This document shows positions 43,455-55,230 of a DNA stretch of 64,000 nucleotides, in pieces (within the stretch, counting starts at the first letter, position 1; each line of letters begins with the position of its first letter). The stretch covers positions 500,241 to 564,240 of the forward strand of contig DIFF01000012.1 in the NCBI GenBank assembly GCA_002419005.1, in the 5' to 3' direction. This DNA comes from Peptococcaceae bacterium UBA5755 (lineage in GTDB: Bacteria; Bacillota; Dehalobacteriia; UBA4068; UBA5755). The notes beneath the pieces are model-generated. The model was not told the origin of the DNA, did no database searches, and saw only the letters and a list, made by a program, of their open reading frames with translations. A program made the translations under genes and the position numbers.

Positions 43455-43835
43455 TTATTGTTTTGCTTCTTCCACATGTTTTTTCATTGCTTCAAAGCTC
43501 TCCGGGCTTATCACATGCTCTATCCGGCAGGCATCCTCCACAGCAATAGTCTTATCAACACCCAGATAGATTAGCCAATCGGAGATGAGTGTATGTCTCT
43601 CGAGCATGGTTTCGGCGATTCCCCTTCCTTTTTTAGTCAATGTAATATACCCTTCGCCGTCCATTTCAATATATCCGTTCTCGCGCAGTTTTTTCATAGC
43701 TACGCTGACGCTCGACTTTTTAAAGTTAAGCGCATCTACAATATCTATGGATCGAACCTGCGCATTTTTATGACTTAAAACAAGAATCGTTTCGAGATAC
43801 ATTTCGGAAGACTCCTGCATTTTCACGGTCTTCAT
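43455..43835 (-). CDS. DtxR/MntR-family metal-dependent transcriptional regulator
   Basis: The N-terminal wHTH is MYLETILVL...VRSIDIVDALN. A dimerisation/metal-binding domain follows. The exact start codon is uncertain. Confidence 0.8.
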   Translation of the reverse strand: MKTVKMQESSEMYLETILVLSHKNAQVRSIDIVDALNFKKSSVSVAMKKLRENGYIEMDGEGYITLTKKGRGIAETMLERHTLISDWLIYLGVDKTIAVEDACRIEHVISPESFEAMKKHVEEAKQ

Positions 43836-43964
43836 CCCCTTTCTACCGATTATACGCAACTGACCATAGAATAGCATATTATTTTTCAGAAATCAAACAA
43901 AACAACATAAATAAATTCGATAAAATACGTATTGACAATGTGGTTAGTTTATGCTAACATACTA

Positions 43965-43986
43965 TTAGTTAGGCAAGCCTAACTAA
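43965..43986. promoter_or_regulatory. DtxR/IdeR-type iron-box operator in the feo promoter
   Basis: TTAGTTAGGC-AA-GCCTAACTAA has perfect 10-bp inverted arms and resembles the iron box TTAGGTTAGGCTAACCTAA. A second half-palindrome, GTTAGTTTATGCTAAC, overlaps the putative promoter TTGACA-N17-TAACAT (43932..43960). Confidence 0.7.
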
Positions 43987-44038
43987 TAGTAAAAACCATG
44001 GATTATTTTATCTAACCATAATACACAGGGGAGGAATT

Positions 44039-44251
44039 ATGATGCCCTTAACAATGGCAAAGGTGGGAGAGGAAAACCTCATCAAAAGGATCAGCGGCAA
44101 GGTGGAGACCAAGCAGCATCTGGAAAATCTCGGGTTTCTTGTCGGCGGTACCGTTACCGTGATTACCAAGATCGGTGGAAACGTAATCGTCAACGTCAAG
44201 GATTCACGGGTTGCCGTCAGCCGTGAGATGGCAAATAAAATCATGGTGTAA
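44039..44251 (+). CDS. feoA: ferrous iron transport protein FeoA
   Basis: A 70-aa SH3-like FeoA domain. The RBS is GGGGAGG. Confidence 0.85.
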   Translation: MMPLTMAKVGEENLIKRISGKVETKQHLENLGFLVGGTVTVITKIGGNVIVNVKDSRVAVSREMANKIMV

Positions 44252-44276
44252 ACAATTTCGAAAGGGGTTACAGGAT

Positions 44277-44498
44277 ATGCAGACACTAAAAGAGATTAAG
44301 TGTGGTGAGACTGTTACGGTTACAAAAATTAATGGTACGGGAGCCGTCAAACGCAGAATTATGGATATGGGGATTACAAAAGGAACTGAAATCTATATGC
44401 GCAAGGTGGCTCCACTGGGAGACCCGGTGGAAATTATGGTACGGGGCTATGAGCTTTCCCTGCGCAAAGCAGACGCGGAGATGATATCGGTACAATAA
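44277..44498 (+). CDS. feoA: ferrous iron transport protein FeoA (second copy)
   Basis: A 73-aa FeoA domain, MQTLKEIKCGETVTVTKI. Confidence 0.85.
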   Translation: MQTLKEIKCGETVTVTKINGTGAVKRRIMDMGITKGTEIYMRKVAPLGDPVEIMVRGYELSLRKADAEMISVQ

Positions 44499-44625
44499 CA
44501 GCGGGGTTCACGGTACAACCGGATCCCGCAATTTTAAGGCCAATAGGTTAGATGCAACTAACTGGCATGTTAGATTAACAAGTCAGTATGAGAAATTTTA
44601 TAGATTTTTATAGGAGGATAAAGTA

Positions 44626-46782
44626 ATGCCCATCAAAATAGCACTTGCCGGCAATCCAAACAGCGGCAAGACTACACTTTTCAATGCGCTTACCGGTTCG
44701 AACCAGTTTGTTGGAAACTGGCCAGGCGTTACGGTGGAAAAAAAAGAAGGGAAACTCAAGAATCATAAAGACGTCATCATCATAGATCTACCTGGAATTT
44801 ACTCACTTTCTCCGTACACGCTGGAAGAGGTAGTCGCAAGAAACTATCTCATAATGGAACGCCCCGACGCTATTCTAAACATCGTTGACGGTACCAATCT
44901 CGAGCGTAATCTGTATCTCACCACGCAGCTGACGGAACTTGGTATTCCTATGGTGATTGCGGTCAACATGATGGATGCTGTTCATAAATCCGGCGACAAA
45001 ATCTACATAGACCGGCTTTTCAAGGAACTTGGCTGTCCTGTTGTGGAAATTTCCGCGCTCAAAGGAACCGGTATTAACGATGCGGCTGAAAAGGCGGTGC
45101 AACTTGCAGAGAGCAAGATACCTATGGTACCGCAACATACGTTTTCTGGCAGCGTCGAACATGCTGTTGCCCACATTGAAGAAGCTACGGAAGGTAAGGT
45201 TGAGAAAAACCAGCAGCGCTGGTTTGCCATCAAAATCTTTGAACGCGATACAAAAGTCATGGAGAAACTTGCACTTTCCAACGAACTCAAACTACATATC
45301 GAGGCGGACATAAAAAGCTGCGAAAAAGAAATGGATGATGACGCCGAAAGCATTATCACCAATGAGCGCTATCTCTATATTGCATCAATTATCAAGGGCT
45401 GCTGCCAGAAAAAAAACAAAGGAAGCCTCTCCGTCTCCGACAAAATCGACAAGGTTGTTACCAACCGATGGCTGGCGCTGCCGATTTTTGCCCTTGTAAT
45501 GTTTATCGTCTATTATATTTCCGTAACTACCATTGGCGCATGGGTCACCGACTGGACAAACGATGTATTCTTCGGTGAAATCATCCCTCCGGCGGTGAAA
45601 AGCCTCCTAGTTTTTGTCGGAACAGCTGGTTGGCTGCAAAGCTTGATTTTGGACGGCATTATTGGCGGCGTTGGCGCAGTGCTTGGCTTTGTACCGCAAA
45701 TGCTGGTGCTCTTTGCTTTTCTCGCCTTTTTGGAAGCTTGCGGCTACATGGCCCGTATTGCCTTTATTATGGACCGCATTTTCCGCAGATTCGGTCTGTC
45801 GGGAAAATCCTTCATACCAATGCTCATCAGCACCGGCTGTGGCGTCCCTGGCATTATGGCCTCGCGGACGATTGAAAACGACCGCGATCGTAAAATGACG
45901 ATCATGACAACCACATTTATTCCCTGCGGGGCAAAGCTTCCCATTATCGCATTGATTGCCGGGGCTTTGTTCAATGGCGCGTGGTGGGTGGCGCCAAGCG
46001 CTTATTTCGTGGGCATCGCCGCCATCATCTGCTCCGGGATTGTCCTAAAGAAAACCCGGGTGTTTGCTGGCGACCCTGCACCCTTCGTAATGGAGTTGCC
46101 CCCCTACCACTGGCCAACTACCGGCAACGTCCTGCGTAGTATGTGGGAACGTGGCTGGTCTTTCATTAAAAAAGCTGGCACGATAATACTTCTTTCTGCT
46201 ATCGTAATTTGGTTCCTGCAGAGCTTTGGCGTCACCAATGGAACCTTCGGCATGGTGGACAACATGAGCGACAGCTTGCTGGCCGTGATCGGAGGTGCGA
46301 TTGCCTGGATTTTTGAGCCGCTCGGCTGGGGACACTGGGAGGCCGCCGTGGCCGCTATTACAGGCCTTGTGGCCAAAGAAAACGTGGTTGGGACATTCGG
46401 AGTACTATACGGATACGCAGAGGTAGCCGAGGATGGCGCAGAGTATTGGGGCACTCTTGCTTCAAGCTTTACGGCTTTGTCAGCTTATTCGTTCCTGGTT
46501 TTCAACCTGCTTTGCGCCCCCTGCTTTGCAGCTATCGGTGCCATTCGCCGAGAAATGAACAACAAAAAGTGGACCTGGTTTGCCATCGGATACCAGACCA
46601 TCTTCGCTTATGCGGTTTCCCTGTGCATTTATCAGTTTGGGAACCTGATTTCCGGAAACGGGTTTGGAATCGGCACGGCAACAGCTCTGATTGTCGCAGC
46701 TGTAGCCCTGTATCTGCTGTTTCGGCCATATAAGGAAAGCGGGACCCTAAATCCCATGATATCGGTAAAAGCGAAGGGTTAG
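44626..46782 (+). CDS. feoB: ferrous iron transporter FeoB
   Basis: The N-terminal G-domain motifs are GNPNSGKTTLFN, DLPG and NMMD. A polytopic membrane domain follows. Confidence 0.95.
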   Translation: MPIKIALAGNPNSGKTTLFNALTGSNQFVGNWPGVTVEKKEGKLKNHKDVIIIDLPGIYSLSPYTLEEVVARNYLIMERPDAILNIVDGTNLERNLYLTTQLTELGIPMVIAVNMMDAVHKSGDKIYIDRLFKELGCPVVEISALKGTGINDAAEKAVQLAESKIPMVPQHTFSGSVEHAVAHIEEATEGKVEKNQQRWFAIKIFERDTKVMEKLALSNELKLHIEADIKSCEKEMDDDAESIITNERYLYIASIIKGCCQKKNKGSLSVSDKIDKVVTNRWLALPIFALVMFIVYYISVTTIGAWVTDWTNDVFFGEIIPPAVKSLLVFVGTAGWLQSLILDGIIGGVGAVLGFVPQMLVLFAFLAFLEACGYMARIAFIMDRIFRRFGLSGKSFIPMLISTGCGVPGIMASRTIENDRDRKMTIMTTTFIPCGAKLPIIALIAGALFNGAWWVAPSAYFVGIAAIICSGIVLKKTRVFAGDPAPFVMELPPYHWPTTGNVLRSMWERGWSFIKKAGTIILLSAIVIWFLQSFGVTNGTFGMVDNMSDSLLAVIGGAIAWIFEPLGWGHWEAAVAAITGLVAKENVVGTFGVLYGYAEVAEDGAEYWGTLASSFTALSAYSFLVFNLLCAPCFAAIGAIRREMNNKKWTWFAIGYQTIFAYAVSLCIYQFGNLISGNGFGIGTATALIVAAVALYLLFRPYKESGTLNPMISVKAKG

Positions 46783-46803
46783 CATAGAAAGGAGAATGAC
46801 ATT

Positions 46804-46989
46804 ATGATAGCCTTCATAGTCGACAATTTAGCGACACTTATTATAAGCGTGGCATTACTGGCTGTTGTCGTACAGATTTCAGTAAATCTGATCAAAAAGA
46901 AAAAAAGCGGTAAAGCTGTAGGCTGCAGCTACAGCTACAGCTACGGCTGCAACACTTGCCCAAGTGCTTCCCTATGCCACAAGCATTAA
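46804..46989 (+). CDS. FeoB-associated Cys-rich membrane peptide
   Basis: A single TM helix is followed by GCSYSYSYGCNTCPSASLCHKH. It lies immediately 3' of feoB. Confidence 0.75.
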   Translation: MIAFIVDNLATLIISVALLAVVVQISVNLIKKKKSGKAVGCSYSYSYGCNTCPSASLCHKH

Positions 46990-47223: not shown

Positions 47224-48279
47224 TCACTGTTCATGATTATAGACATAGGCCGAATAACGCCCGCCGCCGATCTTTAGGACGGTACCTTTATTAATAAGCG
47301 CATTCAGTGACTTGGTTATTGTTGAGTAACTGATGTCAGGGCATAAACCCTGAATCTCCACCATTGTCATTTTACCAAGGTGCGTTTTAAGAATTTCCTC
47401 TATACGCTGCGCTTTTGTTATGGATTTATTTGTGAGATATTCGATACGCAAGGAAAATTCTTTATATGCATTTAGGATAACGCCAAGATAATACCGGGCA
47501 AACGGCTGATAGCTGTTCTTATTATCATGCCAGCCTTCGGAACCATCCTGCAGCGCCTCGTAATAGGTGTTCTTACTCTTTTCTATCAACATTTCAATAC
47601 TTATATATTTACCAACGATGTATCCGCTTCGATAAAGCAGCAGCAAGGTAAGCAGCCGGCTCATTCTCCCATTGCCGGCATTAAAGGGGTGAATACAGAG
47701 AAAGTCAAAAATAAATACTGCAATTAAAAGAAGAGCGTCGGCTTCACCTTTATCCAGTTCGCGTAAAAAGCTATCGCAAAGCGCGTCCATTGCCGCCGGT
47801 GTTTCAAAAGCTGGCATAGTCTTGAAGCGGATAAATTTATGCCCCTCTATATCCTGTTCTTCAATAAAATTATCTACATTTTTATATCTGCCGCCAATGG
47901 ATGACGGACTATATTTATAGAGATCGCGATGAAGTTGCAAGATCACCTTGGAGCGAGGCGCCATATAGTCGTAATTTTCATGTATTAATGCAAGGACGTC
48001 CCTGTATCCCGCGATTTCGCTTTCGTTCCGGTCGTGAGGCTCCGCTTTGTCCCTTACGAGCTCTCCTATACGTTTATCCGAGGTGAAAATACCTTCAATC
48101 AGGTTTGAAGATTCTGTACTCTGGATCTTTGCTACTTTAAGAAGGCTTGACAGAATATCGGCTTTTGATTCGATAAACAAATTTTGCCGGCCCTTATATT
48201 CATAAATAGCTGAAAGTAGATTGACGATATCTGTTGTCAAAAGTGCATCGGTAATATTTGTATAATCAAAAGAGTGCAT
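47224..48279 (-). CDS. Fic-family protein (AMPylation/adenylyltransferase fold)
   Basis: The Fic motif HPFNAGNGRMSR is present. The C-terminus is winged-helix-like. Confidence 0.85.
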   Translation of the reverse strand: MHSFDYTNITDALLTTDIVNLLSAIYEYKGRQNLFIESKADILSSLLKVAKIQSTESSNLIEGIFTSDKRIGELVRDKAEPHDRNESEIAGYRDVLALIHENYDYMAPRSKVILQLHRDLYKYSPSSIGGRYKNVDNFIEEQDIEGHKFIRFKTMPAFETPAAMDALCDSFLRELDKGEADALLLIAVFIFDFLCIHPFNAGNGRMSRLLTLLLLYRSGYIVGKYISIEMLIEKSKNTYYEALQDGSEGWHDNKNSYQPFARYYLGVILNAYKEFSLRIEYLTNKSITKAQRIEEILKTHLGKMTMVEIQGLCPDISYSTITKSLNALINKGTVLKIGGGRYSAYVYNHEQ

Positions 48280-48604
48280 GATACAACCTCCATTCTATCA
48301 TAGTATACCCTTTAATTTATCAATTATATACTGAAAATGATAAATTGGCAAGCTCGAATGTAAAATTGGCAAGTTGTCAGCATTAATATTAATTTATCAT
48401 TCTGTAAACAAAATTGTTAAATTAAATGATTTATTCTTTCACTCATTGTGTTACTCTTAGTGAAAGAATGAAAGAATAAACCACATGTTGCACTCCCCAA
48501 AAAGTTTGGCCATAGTTGATTTCAGATATCATTAGCGCATTGCAGCATGAAATTAAAGACCGGCATTTTCTCATTCAACTGCCGGCCAACATGTTATATC
48601 TCAA

Positions 48605-49036
48605 TCATAATGATTTCGCTAATTCCGTAATTTTACCCTCAATTGTACGGATTACGGAAAGAAATTCCGCATTGCTTTTGCCGGTCGGGTCGGGCAGTCC
48701 CCAGTCTTCGCGGCACTTGCATGGCAGATAGGGGCATTCCACGTTGCAGCCCATCGTTACGACCACATCAACGAGCGGAAGCTCCGCGAGCAACCTTGAA
48801 CGCTGGCTTTCTTCCATATCAATTCCGTGAATCTGCTTCATCAGACGCACCGCATCCGAATTGATGCGGTCTTTTAGTTCCGTACCCGCAGAATAGCTTT
48901 CAAAAATATCGGCGGCAAGCCGTTTTCCTAATGCTTCGGCGATCTGGCTACGGCAGGAGTTATGGACGCAGATAAAAGCCCCCTTTGGTTTACTTATACT
49001 TGAACCATCCTTTCGTATTGTTTGCGATCCTGACAA
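48605..49036 (-). CDS. arsC: arsenate reductase ArsC (LMW-PTP / thioredoxin-coupled type)
   Basis: The CX5R P-loop is CVHNSCRSQ, and the downstream Cys pair is CPYLPCKC. The start is uncertain. No ATG lies near the P-loop. The TTG at 49036 overlaps the ACR3 3' end. An AAAGGGGG RBS lies inside the ORF. Confidence 0.75.
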   Translation of the reverse strand: MSGSQTIRKDGSSISKPKGAFICVHNSCRSQIAEALGKRLAADIFESYSAGTELKDRINSDAVRLMKQIHGIDMEESQRSRLLAELPLVDVVVTMGCNVECPYLPCKCREDWGLPDPTGKSNAEFLSVIRTIEGKITELAKSL

Positions 49037-50037
49037 GGATCAGCATCACCGGCACCTCAGTTAGAACGCCGACTATGGTAGCAAGCGCAGCAGGTGACGT
49101 CGTGCCGAAAAGTGAAATCGCCACCGCGACGGCCAGTTCAAAGAAGTTTGATGCGCTGATCATCCCGGCGGGCGCTGCTATATCGTGCGGCAGTTTTAAT
49201 GCTCTGCTTGTAAGGTAGGCAATGAAGAAAATTAGGAAGGTCTGGATAATCAGCGGTATCGCAATCAACACGATGTGCAGCGGGTTATTCAGAATGACGT
49301 CGCCTTGGAAAGAGAATATAATGACGAGGGTAAGCAGCAGTCCAGTAATGGTAATGTTCTCAAACTTGGGGATAAAGCTCTTTTTAAAGTAATCGAGTCC
49401 ACGATTTCTGATGACGACGTTTCGCGTGACCGTCCCGCCGACCAGAGGAATGACAACGAACAGAACCACCGAGAGAATCAGTGTATCCCAGGGGATCGTC
49501 ACACCGCCTATGCCGAGAAGGAACGCCACAATAGGAGTGAAGGCAACGAGTATAATGAGATCGTTCGTCGCTACCTGCACCACCGCGTAGGCGGCGTTCC
49601 CCTTTGTCAGATGGCTCCAGACAAACACCATGGCGGTGCAGGGAGCAGCGCCCAGCAGAATCGCACCGGCAAGATAACTACGCGCGAGGTCTTCCGGAAT
49701 CAGCGCCTTAAAAATCACAAAGAAAAACAGCCAGGCGTGCCGAACATGGTAAAGGGTTTGATCAGCCAGTTGGTTACCCAGGTGACAAATAAGCCCTTCG
49801 GATTTTTACCCACGTTTTTTATGCTATAAAAATCAACCTTCAGCATCATGGGATAGATCATCAGCCAAATAAGTATGGCAATGGGTATCGAAACATTTGC
49901 GTACTCGAAACGTCCCAGAAAAGCAGGAATGCCCGGCAAAAATTTGCTGACCAGCACGCCTGCGGCCATGCACAAGATGACCCAGAGCTAGAGATATTTT
50001 TCAAAAAAGCCGATCCCCGTATTTTTGCTCTTTGCCA
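48990..50037 (-). pseudogene. ACR3-family arsenite efflux permease, disrupted by an in-frame TAG and a frameshift
   Basis: The minus-strand N-terminus reads MAKSKNTGIGFFEKYL*LWVILCMAAGVL, with a TAG at 49988..49990 where ACR3 proteins have Thr/Ser. The frame switches near 49735..49745: KPFTMF|GTPGCFSL* changes to ...AWLFFFVIFKALIPEDL...LGAAPCTAMVF. The product is otherwise collinear with ACR3/ArsB(YqcL). Confidence 0.75.
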
Positions 50038-50053
50038 TAACTTCGCCTCTTCG

Positions 50054-50584
50054 CTATTGGTTAAGTTCATATATCTTTTTTTGCTGTTCCAGATTAAGAG
50101 CTTTTTCAGCAGTTACCGCAATAATCAAGATACCGATGATACTCAGCGCCAGTCGGGTTAACGTGAAAGTAAGACCTAAACTTGCCGCTTCGAAGGTCAG
50201 CATCGGTATTTTGGTTGTTGACCATGCCCCGATGAATATAAAAACATTAAACAGACTGCTGCCCTTTTTTAACATTATACCGGCGATGGGAAATGCCGCA
50301 TACAGAGGGCCAGCGGCGACAGAACCAAGCAAGAAAGCAATCAAAACCCCTTTTAAGCCGGAACCCTTGCCGGTATATTTCATCATTGTTGCTCGGTCTA
50401 CCCATACGTCCAGTAATCCCAGAAGGATAAAAATCGGCGGGATTACCGATATCATCTCAATGAAGTTCTGCTTTGTGAGGCTGAGTGATTTAAGCCCAAT
50501 ATCCGGTAATGCTAGACCTATCACAATGTTAATAAAAATCAGAAGCAAAAACACCCTATAACGTTTGAAAAAAGCTTTCATCAC
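50054..50584 (-). CDS. half-size permease subunit (COG0701 / ArsP-like permease family, no Cys motif)
   Basis: 176 aa with 5 TM helices. It is similar to the C-terminal half of the 345-aa permease at 53517..54554. Confidence 0.6.
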   Translation of the reverse strand: MMKAFFKRYRVFLLLIFINIVIGLALPDIGLKSLSLTKQNFIEMISVIPPIFILLGLLDVWVDRATMMKYTGKGSGLKGVLIAFLLGSVAAGPLYAAFPIAGIMLKKGSSLFNVFIFIGAWSTTKIPMLTFEAASLGLTFTLTRLALSIIGILIIAVTAEKALNLEQQKKIYELNQ

Positions 50585-51096
50585 AGTAGCACCCCAATCA
50601 CAAATGCGACAATCAGTGAAAATAAAAACGCCGAAATATTACGGATAATTGTGGCGCGCTTCCCGAAGGTTTTTATTTCCAGCGGCAACGTTACAATGCC
50701 GACCATCATAAGCGTGGAAACAAATGCTGCGATCTGCATATATCCCGCGCCGTTTTTTAAAAGCGCCGCCGCAAGCGGAAACGCGACAAATCCTGGAATC
50801 AGTGTAACAGACCCGATAATTGCCGCCCCGAGTACGCCCCAGATTCCTGAGCGTGTTCCGAGAATATTTGTAATCATATCCGGACTCAATATAGCTAGTA
50901 CAAGGCCGATAATGATCAATATGGACAAAAATTGCGGAAGGATGTTCTCAAATGACTTCCATGCTTTTTTTAACGCCATTTTAGTCTTGTTCCGGTCCTT
51001 ATAAAATGATATCACAAGGCCCGTTCCGGCAAGCACATATAAAATATAGATAAACATAGCTGCACCCCAATATTTATTAACTGACCGGTAAGGCAA
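50581..51096 (-). CDS. half-size permease subunit (COG0701 / ArsP-like permease family)
   Basis: 171 aa with 5 TM helices. The GSVTLIPGF segment aligns with GTVTPFCSC of the full-length permease. It overlaps the partner gene by 4 nt. Confidence 0.6.
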   Translation of the reverse strand: MPYRSVNKYWGAAMFIYILYVLAGTGLVISFYKDRNKTKMALKKAWKSFENILPQFLSILIIIGLVLAILSPDMITNILGTRSGIWGVLGAAIIGSVTLIPGFVAFPLAAALLKNGAGYMQIAAFVSTLMMVGIVTLPLEIKTFGKRATIIRNISAFLFSLIVAFVIGVLL

Positions 51097-51117
51097 AAGC
51101 TTATTCCAGATGATTTG

Positions 51118-51504
51118 TCATCTGACCTTTTGCAGGATTTTTACAACCTCTTCTGTCTTGAGCACCTTGCCGTAAGAGACCACTTTCCCGTCCACGACAA
51201 GGGCGGGCGTGGTCATGACGCCGTAAGCCGCGATTTGTGAGAAATCGGTGACATGGTCGATCGTCGTATCCATGCCAAGCTGTTCCAGCGCCGCTTTTGT
51301 TGCCGCTTCCAGTTGATTGCATTTCGCGCAGCCGCTGCCAAGGATTTTTATAGACGCGCCTTCAGTTTTCGCCGTTTCAGCTTTCGACATGCTTTCGGCA
51401 TCGCAGCTGCCGCCGCAGCAGCATGAAGAATCCTCAACTTTTTTGTTTTTATTACTAAACAATGCCATAATAAATATCTCCTTTTCAGAATTATTAGAAT
51501 CCAA
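51118..51504 (-). CDS. thioredoxin-family redox-active disulfide protein 2
   Basis: The motifs are KILGSGCAKCNQLE and VMTTPALVVDGKVV. An N-terminal Cys-rich tail (SSCCCGGSCD) may begin at the internal Met (MALFSN). Confidence 0.8.
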   Translation of the reverse strand: MDSNNSEKEIFIMALFSNKNKKVEDSSCCCGGSCDAESMSKAETAKTEGASIKILGSGCAKCNQLEAATKAALEQLGMDTTIDHVTDFSQIAAYGVMTTPALVVDGKVVSYGKVLKTEEVVKILQKVR

Positions 51505-52123
51505 GATAGAACATATAAAAGCCTATAAGCAGAATAAGAGCGCCCATTGCGATTTTTAAAATAGTGCTTGCTTTTCCATATTTTTCGCCAGAAGAAAGCT
51601 TTTGCACAAAACCAATTGATGTTCCGGCAATTATGGCAAGCATTCCGTGCCCGATTGAATACAGCAGCAACAACAGTATGCCCCAAAGGATGCTTCCTTT
51701 TCCGGCTACGATGGCAAGCAGCGCGATGAGGACCGGCGTCGAGCACGGCGAAGAAAAGATGCCGCCGAGAATCCCTGCGATAAACGCTCCGACAAACCCC
51801 TTTCTTGTGTTCTTTAAAATAAGATAGCTCGATGGAATGATTTCGAAAATGCCCCAGGTCTGTAAGGCCATAAGAATCATGAGGATACCCAGGATGATAT
51901 ACCACCAAGATGCCGAAGTACCAATTAATTTACCGGCCAGCGAAGCAATAACCCCTAGTGTCGTAAAGGTAGCCGCGGCTCCTGCCACAAAAGTTACGGA
52001 AAGCAAAAACGCTTTTTTTGTATCCCGCTGGCCTACACCGCCAACATAACCGATAACCAAAGGAATACTGGAAAGCGAACAGGGCGTAAAGGACGTAAGT
52101 ACTCCAGCCAAAAGCGCAAGCAA
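51494..52123 (-). CDS. ccdA: cytochrome c-type biogenesis / thiol-disulfide electron transfer membrane protein CcdA (DsbD family)
   Basis: There are 6 TM helices. The two conserved Cys sit in TM1 (SFTPCS) and TM4 (SSPCSTP). The start is TTG. Confidence 0.8.
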   Translation of the reverse strand: MLALLAGVLTSFTPCSLSSIPLVIGYVGGVGQRDTKKAFLLSVTFVAGAAATFTTLGVIASLAGKLIGTSASWWYIILGILMILMALQTWGIFEIIPSSYLILKNTRKGFVGAFIAGILGGIFSSPCSTPVLIALLAIVAGKGSILWGILLLLLYSIGHGMLAIIAGTSIGFVQKLSSGEKYGKASTILKIAMGALILLIGFYMFYLGF

Positions 52124-52179
52124 AGGCGCAAACTAGCCGCTCTTCGTTATAAGCTCAGATAAACTCTCCAGTATGGCAG

Positions 52180-52740
52180 TCACTCGGCCACCCCCATGTC
52201 GGCAAGGATATCCCGCATCTGATCTTCGGTCAGGCCGCCCTGATGCACGGTGAAAGCATGTTCTCCGGTTTCTTTATAGCTGTACATAGTAAACTCCACA
52301 TCAATATCGTCACTGGGAACATAGGGTGTTCCATCGGCTTCAATGAAAATCTGTGTGGGAATAACCTGTATCGGGAAACCGTCGGCTGCAGATGAATTCT
52401 TCCACACATCGACAAACTTGATAATGGCTTTCCCCTGCATTTCGGCGTTCATGGTTTCAAGAACGGGAGCCATCTCCTTGCAAGGAATGCAGGAGTCTGA
52501 GCCAAAGTCAATGATAATCGGCAGTCCGTAAGCTGTTAGCGTGTTAAGATCAACAGATTCGGTCTCCAAAACAAAATCTCCTTCATGATCAGGCGTTACA
52601 AGGTTTTCTGAGCCTTTGTCCTCCAAGGGAGCCTCCGGTGCTTCCAAACCTTTGTCAGTATTCTTAAAAAACCATATACCAACAATCACAAGGAGAATAC
52701 AGGCTGGAACGATAATTCTTATTAGTTTTTTCTTATCCAT
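52180..52740 (-). CDS. membrane-anchored thioredoxin-like (TlpA/ResA-like) thiol-disulfide oxidoreductase
   Basis: An N-terminal TM anchor and a thioredoxin-fold active site CIPC are present. Confidence 0.7.
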   Translation of the reverse strand: MDKKKLIRIIVPACILLVIVGIWFFKNTDKGLEAPEAPLEDKGSENLVTPDHEGDFVLETESVDLNTLTAYGLPIIIDFGSDSCIPCKEMAPVLETMNAEMQGKAIIKFVDVWKNSSAADGFPIQVIPTQIFIEADGTPYVPSDDIDVEFTMYSYKETGEHAFTVHQGGLTEDQMRDILADMGVAE

Positions 52741-53504
52741 CAGCAGCAGCCACCCCCGCAGGAGCAGCCGGACTTGCTGTTTTTGCCCTCGTAAAAAGCT
52801 CTTAAATTATCCGGCAGTTTATAGCCGTCGCAGGTACAGCCAAATTCAGACGGACCAAATACGGTTTTCAGAATGGCTGCGGCAAGCATTTCTTTGGGAG
52901 GTACTTCATAGTTTTCCCCATTATATTCAAATACCCGGCAGTCAACATCGGTTCCGCTGATGTCACTGCAGCAGCCGCAGCTGTTTTCCGCGACTGATTG
53001 ACAAATATCCTGACCGTTCACGCGGATTGTCGGAGAAGAAAGAAACTTAAACTGTTCGGCAAGCTCCGCTGTTTTCACCTCAATTTTGTGATACCCGACT
53101 TCGTAACCGGCAAGCCGCAACGCGGGGGTAAGTGTCATCATCACTTCATCAAGCACAGCATCCGTCCCAATGCATCTGTCACAGGTCTGCAAATCGAGAT
53201 AGAGATACTCAACGTCAATTTTCTTTTCAGAAGATGCTTCACAGCCGCAGGAACAGCAGGGTTCCTCGTTTTCCTGTGTGTCATTCGGCGGCGACCAGCC
53301 GGTGCCTTCGCCAACATAAGTGATCGCTCCAACCGGACAGCGGTTGCCGCAGCCGTGGCAATGGTCGATACAGGCTTCCGGATTCGTTACAACGGGTGAC
53401 GGGGCTTTCACGGTATCATAAACGCCATGGGGACACTTTGAAATGCAGGTGCCGCACTCTGTACAGGTCAAATAGTCTATAACGGGATACCATGTCTTTG
53501 CCAT
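52740..53504 (-). CDS. 4Fe-4S ferredoxin domain fused to a Cys-rich DUF2703-like domain
   Basis: The N-terminus has CTECGTCISKCP...CHGCGNRCP. The C-terminus has several CxC/CC clusters, ending in GCSCGGGCC. Confidence 0.65.
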   Translation of the reverse strand: MAKTWYPVIDYLTCTECGTCISKCPHGVYDTVKAPSPVVTNPEACIDHCHGCGNRCPVGAITYVGEGTGWSPPNDTQENEEPCCSCGCEASSEKKIDVEYLYLDLQTCDRCIGTDAVLDEVMMTLTPALRLAGYEVGYHKIEVKTAELAEQFKFLSSPTIRVNGQDICQSVAENSCGCCSDISGTDVDCRVFEYNGENYEVPPKEMLAAAILKTVFGPSEFGCTCDGYKLPDNLRAFYEGKNSKSGCSCGGGCC

Positions 53505-53516
53505 AATATTTTCCTC

Positions 53517-54554
53517 CTATATGATGAATCCCTGAATAGCATTGAAAAAGTAACCTACAGTGATAATGCCGACGGTACAGATGGCAATAAACAGCGTCAG
53601 CAGCTTTGGTTTGACCGCTTTGCGGAGCATGATCATGGACGGCAGGGACAACGTGGTGACGGCCATCATAAATGACAGTATGGAGCCAAGCTGCGCCCCT
53701 TTGTATAACAGAGCTTCCGCAATCGGGATCGTACCAAAGATGTCGGCATACATCGGAACTCCCACCAGCGTTGCCAACATGACCCCAAAGGGATTTTTGC
53801 TGCCGAGCACCGTTGCCACCCATTCCTCTGGGATCCAGTTGTGGATAACAGCGCCGATACCCACGCCGAACAAAATATAGGGGAACACTTTTTTAAAGGT
53901 GGAGAGCATCTGCTCCTTGGCGTAAATCAGCCGGTCTTTCTTCGTCAGGTCCGGCGATTCAATATCCACACTGCCGGCTGTCAGAATGAAGCTTTCAACG
54001 TGTTTTTCCATGTGCAGCTTCTCAATGAGCGTGCCGCCGATTACCGCGATGATCAGGCCGACAATCACATAGACGACGGCTACCTTTGCACCAAAAATGC
54101 TCATCAGCAGGAGCAGTGAACCGAGATCCACCATCGGCGAGGAAATCAGGAATGAGAACGTCACGCCGACGGGAAGTCCTGCTGATGTGAAGCCGATGAA
54201 CAACGGTATGGACGAACAAGAACAAAAAGGCGTGACCGTGCCGAGCAAAGCCGCCACACTGTTCGCTCTAATCCCATGGAAACGCCCAAGTATTCTCTTG
54301 CTGCGTTCCGGCGGAAAGTAGCTTTGAATGTAACTGATGAGAAAGATTAGGAAGCACAGCAGTACCGTTATCTTAATCACATCGTATAGAAAAAACTCAA
54401 TGCTTCCGACCAGGCGGGTGGACGTATCAAACCTCATAGCGGCAAGAGCGCTTCCGATCAGCCCATCCAGCCATTTCATGCCGAGAATCTGATACTGGAA
54501 AAAATCCCAGATTACTTTTAATATTTGCATTGCAGGAAGACCCTCTCTTTCCAT
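53517..54554 (-). CDS. ArsP-like permease (COG0701, TPFCSCSS motif)
   Basis: 345 aa with 8-10 TM helices. The VTPFCSCSSIP motif is characteristic of the organoarsenical / predicted permease family. Confidence 0.75.
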   Translation of the reverse strand: MEREGLPAMQILKVIWDFFQYQILGMKWLDGLIGSALAAMRFDTSTRLVGSIEFFLYDVIKITVLLCFLIFLISYIQSYFPPERSKRILGRFHGIRANSVAALLGTVTPFCSCSSIPLFIGFTSAGLPVGVTFSFLISSPMVDLGSLLLLMSIFGAKVAVVYVIVGLIIAVIGGTLIEKLHMEKHVESFILTAGSVDIESPDLTKKDRLIYAKEQMLSTFKKVFPYILFGVGIGAVIHNWIPEEWVATVLGSKNPFGVMLATLVGVPMYADIFGTIPIAEALLYKGAQLGSILSFMMAVTTLSLPSMIMLRKAVKPKLLTLFIAICTVGIITVGYFFNAIQGFII

Positions 54555-54620
54555 AAAGGGGAATTATAGCAAATAAATTTGATGTATGGTGCTTTTTAAA
54601 AGCCATCGTCTGGATAGCTT

Positions 54621-55001
54621 TTATTTTTTACAGCAATTGTTTTTTTCAATCACCGTGTTTGGCTTTGTCAGTTCCTTCAGTAGGGTACCGGCATAGGCGC
54701 TGCCTTTTTCGCTGATTTTATAGTGCGTCCATTTGCCTTCCTGGCAGCTCTCCACAACGCCCGACTCAACCAAAATCTTCATGTGGTAGGAAAGCCCCGA
54801 CTGCCCCAAGTCCAGTTGTTCCAGTAAAACACAGGCGCATTTTTCGCCGCCGCGCAACAATTCAAGAATCCTCAGACGCTTTTCATCGCAGAAGGCCTTA
54901 AACACTTTCGCATGTTCTTCGTAAATTGTTGCCAAGTTATCACCCCATATCAAAATTATTTGATATGTTTTTAGTATATGCTTCAAATCAAATTTTGTCA
55001 A
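54621..55001 (-). CDS. arsR: ArsR/SmtB-family metalloregulator
   Basis: The HTH is FCDEKRLRILELL. The metal-site Cys pair EKCACVLLEQL is present. It is the first gene of the minus-strand island. Confidence 0.85.
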   Translation of the reverse strand: MTKFDLKHILKTYQIILIWGDNLATIYEEHAKVFKAFCDEKRLRILELLRGGEKCACVLLEQLDLGQSGLSYHMKILVESGVVESCQEGKWTHYKISEKGSAYAGTLLKELTKPNTVIEKNNCCKK

Positions 55002-55136: not shown

Positions 55137-55230
55137 TGGCGGAGTGGGTGGGATTCGAACCCACGGACCGGCTCATCACCGATCAAACGATTTCGAGTCG
55201 TTCTCGTTATGACCTCTTCGATACCACTCC
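55137..55230 (-). tRNA. tRNA-Ser (anticodon CGA)
   Basis: The minus-strand sequence GGAGTGGTATCGAAG...ACGACTCGAAATCGTT...GTGGGTTCGAATCCCACCCACTCCGCCA folds as a cloverleaf with a long variable arm. The anticodon loop is CTCGAAA, the discriminator is G, and CCA is encoded. Confidence 0.9.

Follow-up and report, generated by a model that had tools for sequence, protein, structure and literature searches.

A co-directional run of ten minus-strand genes in the genome of Peptococcaceae bacterium UBA5755, lying between positions 55001 and 48605 of a 64,000-nucleotide stretch (contig DIFF01000012.1; hereafter the window), is probably best read as one ArsR-repressed operon for the handling of arsenicals, assembled from interchangeable cassettes in circulation among anaerobic Clostridia. 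This reading, which includes the mechanism proposed below, has our support at somewhat better than even confidence. Comparison of gene content across related loci showed a conserved four-gene core, namely arsR, arsP, a gene fusing a ferredoxin to a DUF2703 domain, and arsE. The same comparison showed three optional cassettes: a membrane thioredoxin with CcdA, a split pair of PF03773 permeases, and acr3-arsC. Judged by its genes, the window cluster is a maximal combination of these cassettes around the fixed core.

The comparison started from the fusion protein, for which we obtained 1741 homologues. Scanning one genome per species yielded 230 stretches with relatives, and 80 loci were fetched; the component counts given below and in Table 1 come from mapping the window proteins onto the 56 loci with enough flank. 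Hosts of these loci include Oscillospiraceae, Lachnospiraceae, Peptococcaceae, Christensenellaceae and others. The fusion gene was placed between arsP and arsE in 52 to 53 of the 56 loci, and gene order, compared with that of other anaerobes, recurs in dozens of genomes, many of them Clostridia. Since it is the identical order that recurs, the arrangement lies far beyond chance. The complete window architecture was also found in two other loci (L012 and L050), and its redox trio (thioredoxin, CcdA, redox-active disulfide protein 2) had already been reported (PMC2963123), so the "unusual membership" claimed in an earlier note on this DNA was an overstatement. The arsenic link drawn in that note, on the other hand, gained comparative support, acr3 and/or arsC lying beside the same core in 35 of the 56 loci. 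All eight genes upstream of acr3 are full length, with Ka/Ks values (ratios of nonsynonymous to synonymous substitution rates) of 0.03 to 0.16 against L012; by this sequence measure they are under strong purifying selection.

The ten-gene run was recovered in full by open reading frame calls, Pfam and NCBIfam, and the view of it as one co-directional unit with ArsR at its head was supported. The short or overlapping junctions described earlier were likewise found, the intergenic gaps from arsR to arsC being 66, 12, -1, 56, 25, 21, -4, 15 and -6 nt; the first of these becomes 90 nt if arsP starts at 54530, the likely start, which gives a protein of 337 aa. The higher GC content noted before is a mild elevation, 47.3% in the cluster against a window mean of 41.6%, yet it is the top value of all 6.4-kb windows (top 0.3%). 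A scan of the minus strand of the cluster returned no convincing internal terminator. The terminator-like hairpin 3' of arsC folds as RNA with -15.6 kcal/mol (z -1.5), a signal that is weak taken alone.

Table 1. Positions of the features discussed in the text, and the number of the 56 mapped loci in which each component was found. The last two rows refer to other loci, with coordinates of those loci.
Feature	Position	Strand	Evidence	Loci (of 56)
Sigma-70-type promoter, TTGACA-17-TATACT	54973-55001	-	scan, 11/12 matches	
Putative ArsR-type operator	54946-54967	.	perfect 9-bp inverted repeat CATATCAAA-N4-TTTGATATG	
arsR	54621-54935	-	104 aa, TTG start after GGGGTGATAAC; HTH_5 1e-12; NF033788 75.7 bits vs cut-off 55	52
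arsP permease	53517-54554	-	full-length PF03773 (ArsP_1) 2.9e-62; TPFCSCSS	52
Ferredoxin-DUF2703 fusion	52740-53504	-	254 aa; Fer4 + DUF2703 1.8e-34	
Membrane-anchored thioredoxin	52180-52740	-	PF00085 2.7e-10	20
ccdA (DsbD_TM)	51494-52123	-	PF02683 2.2e-24	19
arsE-type thioredoxin-like protein	51118-51468	-	116 aa; TIGR00412 "MTH895/ArsE" 99.3 bits vs cut-off 62; PF13192 (Thioredoxin_3) 1e-27	53
halfA, single-repeat PF03773 permease	50581-51096	-	ArsP_1 24.8 bits, below gathering cut-off (GA)	6-7 (pair)
halfB, single-repeat PF03773 permease	50054-50584	-	ArsP_1 47.9 bits vs GA 32.3	6-7 (pair)
acr3 pseudogene	48990-50038	-	TIGR00832 261 bits on C-terminal fragment	27
arsC, thioredoxin-coupled low-molecular-weight protein tyrosine phosphatase (LMW-PTPase) type	48605-48997	-	LMWPc 1.1e-15	29
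Terminator-like hairpin 3' of arsC	48550-48587	-	8-bp GC-rich stem, then UUUAAUUU	
Homologues of fusion residues 1-66	L155/L156 (L156 6566-7237); L175/L176 6001-6654; L007 16764-16994; L100 10353-10583; L152 6537-6800			
Half-pair loci outside ars contexts	L090 3468-5528; L099 4109-6531; L127; L153; L154			

One component that sets the window-type loci apart from described cassettes is the fusion protein. It consists of a ferredoxin domain for two [4Fe-4S] clusters (residues 1-66), a Cys-rich linker, the DUF2703 domain and a Cys-rich tail. The motifs CxxCxxCxxxCP and CxxxCxxCxxxCP of the ferredoxin part supply eight predicted Fe-S ligands, each of which is at least 99% conserved in 85 sequences. 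In the DUF2703 part (Pfam score 118.8 bits against 23.6), CDRC at 108-111 is conserved, as are C168, C176, C178, C179 and C189. Modeling with AlphaFold2 gave a predicted local distance difference test (pLDDT) score above 95 for this part when an alignment of 98 diverse sequences was used; a run with 15 close homologues (pLDDT 45) was discarded. When the DUF2703 model was compared with the PDB by Foldseek, the top matches were all thioredoxins, with a probability of ~1 and target template-modeling scores of 0.5 to 0.67. In the model, helix 1 begins after strand 1 with C108xxC111, which is the canonical active-site position, and the invariant S157-P158-T159 is placed where thioredoxins have their cis-Pro loop. 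We therefore confidently predict that DUF2703 adopts a thioredoxin fold with its CxxC at the canonical active-site position, in keeping with its previous placement in the thioredoxin clan (PMC3091736).

DUF2703 is tied to arsenic independently of the window-type cassette. On a megaplasmid of Peptoclostridium acidaminophilum, arsR and acr3 have a stand-alone DUF2703 gene between them, an As(V)-induced DUF2703 gene is part of a Rhodococcus ars cluster (PMC6514093), and the domain has also been found fused to ArsD (PMC3091736). Full-length fusions with the ferredoxin, by comparison, form a narrow clade of 76 clusters at 1e-30 in a library clustered at 50% identity, most relatives being without the ferredoxin part. 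Sequence searches of the PDB with the fusion returned generic ferredoxins only, a plasmid search gave a single distant DUF2703 match, and PADLOC had no match for either the fusion or halfA.

Indeed, the ferredoxin domain has a life of its own beside other arsenic genes. Its family shares 28 invariant positions, including WYP.I.Y..C..C..C...C.H.VY and C...CHGC...CP.GAI.Y.G, and homologues were found as stand-alone domains directly upstream of arsE (L152, L155 and L156) or of arsC (L007 and L100), as well as fused to ArsC in a 217-aa protein (L155 and L156). The ferredoxin-ArsC (Fd-ArsC) family comprises more than 100 clusters at 90% identity, with full-length coverage, 60 to 96% identity, and both Fer4 and LMWPc domains. 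One example is a Ruminococcus sp. contig with a minimal arsR-arsP-(Fd-ArsC) operon, in which the fusion fills the slot held by the ferredoxin-DUF2703 gene in the window; ArsP and ArsR of this contig are 69% and 54% identical to those of the window. Fusion, fission and positional replacement thus connect the ferredoxin domain both with ArsP and with arsenic redox proteins of the thiol-based kind, and by these gene contexts it is a dedicated ars-linked module. A genomic remark on Fusibacter sp. 3D3 fits the same pattern, a ferredoxin, together with a redox-active disulfide protein, adjoining arsC-1 there (PMC9751042). In the Fd-ArsC fusions and the Fusibacter context, as in the window, an arsenic redox protein of the thiol-based kind is partnered by the same domain (WYPVIDY...CxxCxxCxxxCP...CxxxCHGCxxxCP.GAI.Y); the partner is DUF2703 in the window fusion and ArsC in the Fd-ArsC fusions. 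Full-text literature searches returned no paper that counts the ferredoxin-DUF2703 gene among core ars components and none linking it to Fd-ArsC fusions; DUF2703 itself was named in two papers only.

Taken from gene context, these associations argue for ferredoxin-DUF2703 as a ferredoxin-driven thiol reductase or hand-off module serving ArsP, and the fusion of a ferredoxin to a thioredoxin fold probably feeds electrons into arsenic handling. The role of the fusion and that of the split permease, both of which had been left as unknown, are narrowed in this way, the former to an ars-linked ferredoxin module that also occurs fused to ArsC and the latter to a widespread paralogous pair usually found beside arsE (see below).

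The promoter upstream of arsR is the top-scoring one within 10 kb in our scan. Between its -10 element and a GGGGTG ribosome-binding site sits the palindromic putative operator, which has a single match in the window (0.08 expected by chance; 8 of 100 shuffles gave one); a second, degenerate copy overlaps the -35 element and spacer. Because both the palindrome and the ribosome-binding site lie upstream of it, the TTG at 54935 is taken as the start of arsR. In the upstream regions of arsR from ~70 related loci (including L006-L085; window 54933-55001), the promoter, both operator boxes, the ribosome-binding site and the TTG start are near-identical at the DNA level across bacterial families, whereas the genes themselves are at or near synonymous saturation (Ks 0.85 to 2.5). 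The control region has therefore been kept by selection rather than by recent shared ancestry.

ArsR itself carries C16, C33xC35 and a C-terminal C101-C102 pair, with conservation of 0.92 to 1.00 among 74 homologues. Two marks of an ars operon are thus present, a unit headed by an ArsR with Cys ligands and a palindromic operator at its promoter, binding as such being a prediction. Five loci (including L007, L009, L024 and L085) have a second arsR of another type (EMCVCEIEDC) directly 5' of acr3. This second ArsR has three Cys around helix 3, as opposed to the CxC and C-terminal CC pair of the core ArsR, which suggests two sensors with different inducers. Its position before acr3 makes acr3-arsC a separable, separately regulated module.

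Of the other two members of the core, ArsP matches PF03773 with 211 bits against a GA of 32.3, covering profile positions 6 to 293 of 294, and its C111xC113 (TPFCSCSS) is invariant in 75 homologues; a sequence search of the PDB gave no match for it. ArsE has an N-terminal CCCGGSC, of which CCC-x3-C is kept, and a CAKC active site with C59xxC62 100% conserved. ArsP is described as an exporter of trivalent organoarsenicals, MAs(III) and Rox(III) (PMC6205960). A report on Pseudodesulfovibrio mercurii ND132 describes an arsenic-induced arsR-arsP-arsE "operon C" and cites ArsE as an organoarsenical resistance protein (bioRxiv 10.1101/2022.10.17.512643). Such arsR-arsP(-arsE) cassettes, which include those of Campylobacter jejuni ArsP, of P. 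mercurii "operon C" and of Shewanella ArsE of ArsEFG, likewise unite an ArsR, a PF03773 permease and a PF13192/TIGR00412 protein. They are without the ferredoxin-DUF2703 fusion, which the window-type loci carry between arsP and arsE.

We next turn to the optional cassettes, beginning with the pair that the earlier note had read as part of a complete trans-membrane disulfide-reduction relay ending in a "TlpA-like" protein. That protein is a PF00085 thioredoxin of the classical type, which carries a signal anchor: the ResA model gives it 16.6 bits where 170 are required, and Pfam matches were to PF00085 and PF13098 only, with no AhpC-TSA/Redoxin-type domain. The start codon of its gene overlaps with the stop codon that ends the fusion gene. 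An N-terminal KKK (four K/R before the membrane segment) is followed by one transmembrane segment at 9-25 and by CIPC at 84-87, and hydropathy together with the positive-inside rule predicts that the catalytic domain faces outward. Both C84xxC87 of the thioredoxin and, among 34 homologues, C15 and C127 of CcdA are 100% conserved. Sequence thus provides all parts of a relay, in the form of the CcdA Cys pair, the outward thioredoxin and two cytoplasmic CxxC proteins, ArsE and DUF2703. As for the claim of a complete relay, its parts stand, but they make up an optional cassette: thioredoxin and CcdA share 19 loci (19 of 20) and are always placed between the fusion gene and arsE. Since the relay was found in just 19 to 20 of the 56 loci, the invariant partners being ArsR, ArsP, ferredoxin-DUF2703 and ArsE, it is unlikely to be the defining function, and on this distribution the CcdA relay is accessory.

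CcdA and thioredoxin, along with redox-active disulfide protein 2, have been described as ars determinants (Castillo & Saier 2010; PMC2963123). There, the same redox trio lies inside ars operons, usually with arsC, and is proposed as a putative support system for arsenate reductase. The eight instances given are without the ferredoxin-DUF2703 gene and without the split permease, both of which are present in the window, and the role was proposed from the genes. A two-Cys CcdA with a membrane-anchored, outer-face CxxC partner is likewise known from the CcdA-ResA, CcdA-StoA and TlpA pathways; the window differs from these in that the partner is a PF00085 thioredoxin and no cytochrome c maturation genes are nearby. 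As cytoplasmic electron donor, the ArsE encoded in the operon itself is more probable than TrxA.

The second cassette, halfA and halfB, consists of two single-repeat permeases, both without Cys, whose genes overlap by 4 nt. HalfA has ~5 hydrophobic segments. By hhalign, the two are paralogues (98.4% probability, E 5e-15), and each aligns to the C-terminal repeat of ArsP with 94 to 95.5% probability; the two halves of ArsP itself are weakly alike (E 0.016). The 6091 homologues of halfB are all ~175 aa long, and in 80 metagenome loci halfA lies directly 5' of halfB wherever upstream sequence is available. Among 19 well-flanked halfA-halfB loci, ars-type neighbors were seen in 12 (arsE in 10, arsP in 9), while the remaining seven have neighbors such as polyferredoxin and DsrE, thioredoxin and Crp, an ArsR-type regulator, or CcsA. 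Another half-pair locus combines HxlR/ArsR with rhodanese and ferredoxin. These neighbors hint at a sulfur- or thiol-linked substrate. As far as gene context tells, halfA-halfB is a widespread heterodimer-type member of PF03773, consistently tied to thiol/sulfur redox proteins. Database labels go no further than "permease" or "YraQ (UPF0718 family)", and we know of no published description of the pair, a literature search aimed at it not having been made. The split pair shows cleanly, as a case from nature, that a family of two-repeat transporters can also come as separate subunits with one repeat each.

In the third cassette, acr3-arsC, the decay of acr3 that had been reported is real, consisting of a nonsense codon plus a 1-nt deletion. 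The gene opens normally (MAKSKNTGIGFFEKYL, ATG at 50038) and then runs into a TAG at 49990-49988; this codon is TCG in a sister strain and ACG in other loci. In addition, one T has been lost from between 49738 and 49737. The frame is thereby broken into pieces of 17, 86 and 242 codons, and an uninterrupted frame of ~350 aa is absent. Reading of the TAG as pyrrolysine was ruled out by the frameshift in the same gene and by the TCG in the sister strain. Contrary to its earlier listing as intact, arsC is damaged as well: it has ATA at 48995-48997 where ~40 homologous loci have ATG (MSKPKVAFIC), and a V-to-G change just before the P-loop. It keeps the thioredoxin-coupled catalytic Cys C11, C85 and C89, and an upstream TTG might serve as start. 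The lesions are identical in separate assemblies and so are not read errors; one sister-strain contig has a deletion of ~0.7 kb in acr3 instead. Together, these lesions show the acr3-arsC cassette in the course of being lost from the window strain, as far as its sequence tells.

A functional ArsB/Acr3 arsenite pump, another mark of ars operons, is thus missing in the window strain. The arsenical efflux claimed for the cluster accordingly divides in two, ACR3 being dead in this strain and ArsP intact, as far as a full-length PF03773 match indicates. In ~40 other loci, including several with the half pair, acr3 is intact; it is broken only in the window lineage and in Anaerotignum neopropionicum (L088/L089), both of which have halfA/halfB directly upstream. 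The split permease may make Acr3 dispensable, a notion that comes from two lineages only.

Some observations concern the site and host of the cluster. Sister strains carry the cluster at the same place in the chromosome. A tRNA-Ser(CGA) gene (55137-55230, minus strand) with its own strong terminator hairpin directly adjoins the ars promoter on the upstream side; the tRNA was the only Rfam match. A tRNA-borne island was considered and rejected, there being no direct repeat derived from tRNA-Ser and no detectable integration scars, and the site being common to sister strains. Downstream of the cluster, a Fic-domain gene (47224-48279, minus strand) matches the PADLOC "SoFic" defence model (2e-33). 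A block of Fic, FeoB-associated, FeoB, FeoA and FeoA genes (47224-48279 and 43455-46989) is absent from the sister contigs L002/L004, in which arsC is directly followed by the gene of an Fe-dependent repressor; the Fic-Feo block is a strain-variable segment. The window organism is present in metagenomes of methanogenic alkane- and naphtha-degrading enrichments (L001-L005; records SCADC, NAPDC and SRR636559).

How might the operon work? In the mechanism that we propose, As(III) or methylarsenite would bind the Cys sites of ArsR and derepress the operon. The ferredoxin domain would accept low-potential electrons through its two [4Fe-4S] clusters and pass them to the CxxC of its own DUF2703 domain and/or of ArsE. 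These Cys-rich cytoplasmic proteins would reduce arsenicals and/or carry them as thiol complexes, and trivalent arsenicals would be handed by the fusion and ArsE to ArsP for export, in parallel to ArsC feeding Acr3. Where present, CcdA would supply reducing equivalents, for which ArsE is the most likely source, to the thioredoxin on the outer face, which may keep exofacial thiols reduced or resolve arsenical-thiol adducts. The Cys-free halfA/halfB heterodimer would be a second exporter with a different, thiol- or sulfur-linked substrate.

A bolder version of this mechanism would make the fusion and ArsE a ferredoxin-dependent reductase of pentavalent arsenicals, possibly methylated or aromatic As(V), that generates the trivalent substrate of ArsP. 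Ferredoxin-DUF2703 and Fd-ArsC would in that case represent two forms of a single, so far unrecognised class of ferredoxin-driven arsenic reduction that does not depend on NADPH-thioredoxin reductase. We offer this only tentatively, and hold it to be considerably less likely than not to be right in full. To our knowledge, no bacterial reductase for methylated or aromatic As(V) has been identified. The logic resembles that of ferredoxin:thioredoxin reductases, in which low-potential electrons likewise pass from Fe-S to a dithiol on a thioredoxin-fold protein. Those enzymes have a special [4Fe-4S] cluster next to the disulfide, and clostridial ferredoxin-dependent thioredoxin reductases use flavin, while the window fusion joins a plain two-[4Fe-4S] domain to a thioredoxin fold and has no sequence relationship to ferredoxin:thioredoxin reductase.

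Several observations weigh against the arsenical-handling operon with the mechanism outlined above, and it is here that the other readings have to be considered. Direct electron transfer from Fe-S to a disulfide normally requires special chemistry, as in ferredoxin:thioredoxin reductase, and with a pLDDT of ~50 for the ferredoxin part the model does not give the cluster-to-CxxC geometry. One could hold that ferredoxin-DUF2703 and ArsE are Cys-rich metalloid chaperones or buffers of the ArsD kind, delivering trivalent arsenicals to ArsP, with the Fe-S domain structural or regulatory. The linkers and tails (CCSCGC, CSCGGGCC and CCCGGSC) speak for it, as does the conserved C176/C179/C189 trio, which could form an S3 As(III) site. 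ArsD, too, is a thioredoxin-fold protein with As(III)-binding Cys encoded in ars operons, and stand-alone DUF2703 between arsR and acr3 takes a frequent arsD position; the fusion to ArsD mentioned above belongs here as well. The window fusion, in contrast, has no Pfam ArsD match. HgcB, a two-[4Fe-4S] ferredoxin, likewise ends in a pair of vicinal Cys that serves a soft metal, and the fusion, at 24 bits against the HgcB cut-off of 99, is not a member. The near-complete conservation of the eight Fe-S Cys and the fusion of the same ferredoxin to ArsC, a redox enzyme, point to electron transfer instead, and the CxxC occupies the place in the thioredoxin fold that is canonical for redox activity. 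Chaperoning as the main role is thus an outside chance that we would still take seriously. The extracytoplasmic model of the earlier note, by which electrons run from thioredoxin through CcdA and the membrane thioredoxin to arsenicals outside the cell and this reduction or handling is the point of the island, appears unlikely to us. It draws on the presence of all relay parts with their catalytic Cys, on the predicted outward orientation of the thioredoxin, and on the fixed insertion site of the pair. Yet the core persists without the relay, no extracytoplasmic arsenical-binding or -reducing protein is encoded, and CcdA partners normally reduce protein disulfides. Moreover, trans-membrane electron flow for arsenate reduction was judged less likely by Castillo & Saier (PMC2963123), ArsC being cytoplasmic.

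A further set of observations bears on arsenic as the substrate. The literature separates As(III)-type from MAs(III)-type ArsR by Cys positions, and the window ArsR combines both sets; mixing the positions of several ArsR site types, it does not allow its inducer to be assigned from sequence. PF03773 includes named Cu/Zn (SO_0444) and selenium-associated (SaoE) exporters, to which the window ArsP is closest, though below their cut-offs. Neither acr3 nor arsC is nearby in 21 of the 56 loci, halfA-halfB also occurs beside DsrE, rhodanese, Fe-S and thioredoxin genes without ars genes, and the loss of acr3 and arsC, with the rest kept, suggests that selection for resistance to inorganic arsenic has been relaxed in the lineage. 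The loci without acr3 and arsC, the other half-pair contexts and this selective decay would suit a general system against soft-metal or thiol stress (Cd, Hg, Sb, Cu/Zn, Se/Te or reactive sulfur) that is only sometimes found next to ars genes and does not have arsenic as its substrate. Among NCBIfam models, those closest to the permeases and to the thioredoxin-like proteins are Cu/Zn-efflux and selenium-associated families (SO_0444, SaoE, SaoT, DF (seleno)protein and TsoB/TsoR) and so have the same flavor, but their matches are all far below cut-offs. Adjacency of acr3 or arsC in the majority of loci and the physical fusion of the ferredoxin domain to ArsC speak for arsenic, as does the arsenic induction of arsR-arsP-arsE in P. 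mercurii (bioRxiv 10.1101/2022.10.17.512643), and we regard the general stress system as quite unlikely. Finally, the lesions in acr3 and arsC and the larger acr3 deletion in the sister strain could mark the whole island as a decaying relic whose intact frames are non-functional. With eight full-length upstream genes whose catalytic Cys are complete and whose Ka/Ks values are low against distant homologues, and with a perfect promoter and operator, this is very improbable. An ArsR-repressed arsenical-handling operon thus remains our preferred account.

In summary, the cluster is a real ars operon with a single promoter, and its CcdA, thioredoxin and ArsE extras have been in the literature since 2010. 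What is new here are the acr3 and arsC lesions in this lineage, the predicted thioredoxin fold of DUF2703, and the occurrence of the ferredoxin domain alone beside arsE or arsC and fused to ArsC. Textbook arsenic detoxification rests on aerobes and facultative bacteria, with ArsR, ArsB/Acr3 and an ArsC fed by NADPH-dependent thioredoxin or glutaredoxin. The cluster points to another standard solution in Clostridia of gut, digester and sediment, in which an ArsP-centered core comes with a dedicated ferredoxin wired to thioredoxin-fold proteins. If the ferredoxin does drive thiol chemistry, this would explain how low-potential anaerobes power arsenic reduction, would provide a candidate for an organoarsenical reductase, and would bear on arsenic speciation in the gut and in methanogenic environments. 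The finding thus points to a possibly general, ferredoxin-driven route of arsenic handling in strict anaerobes.

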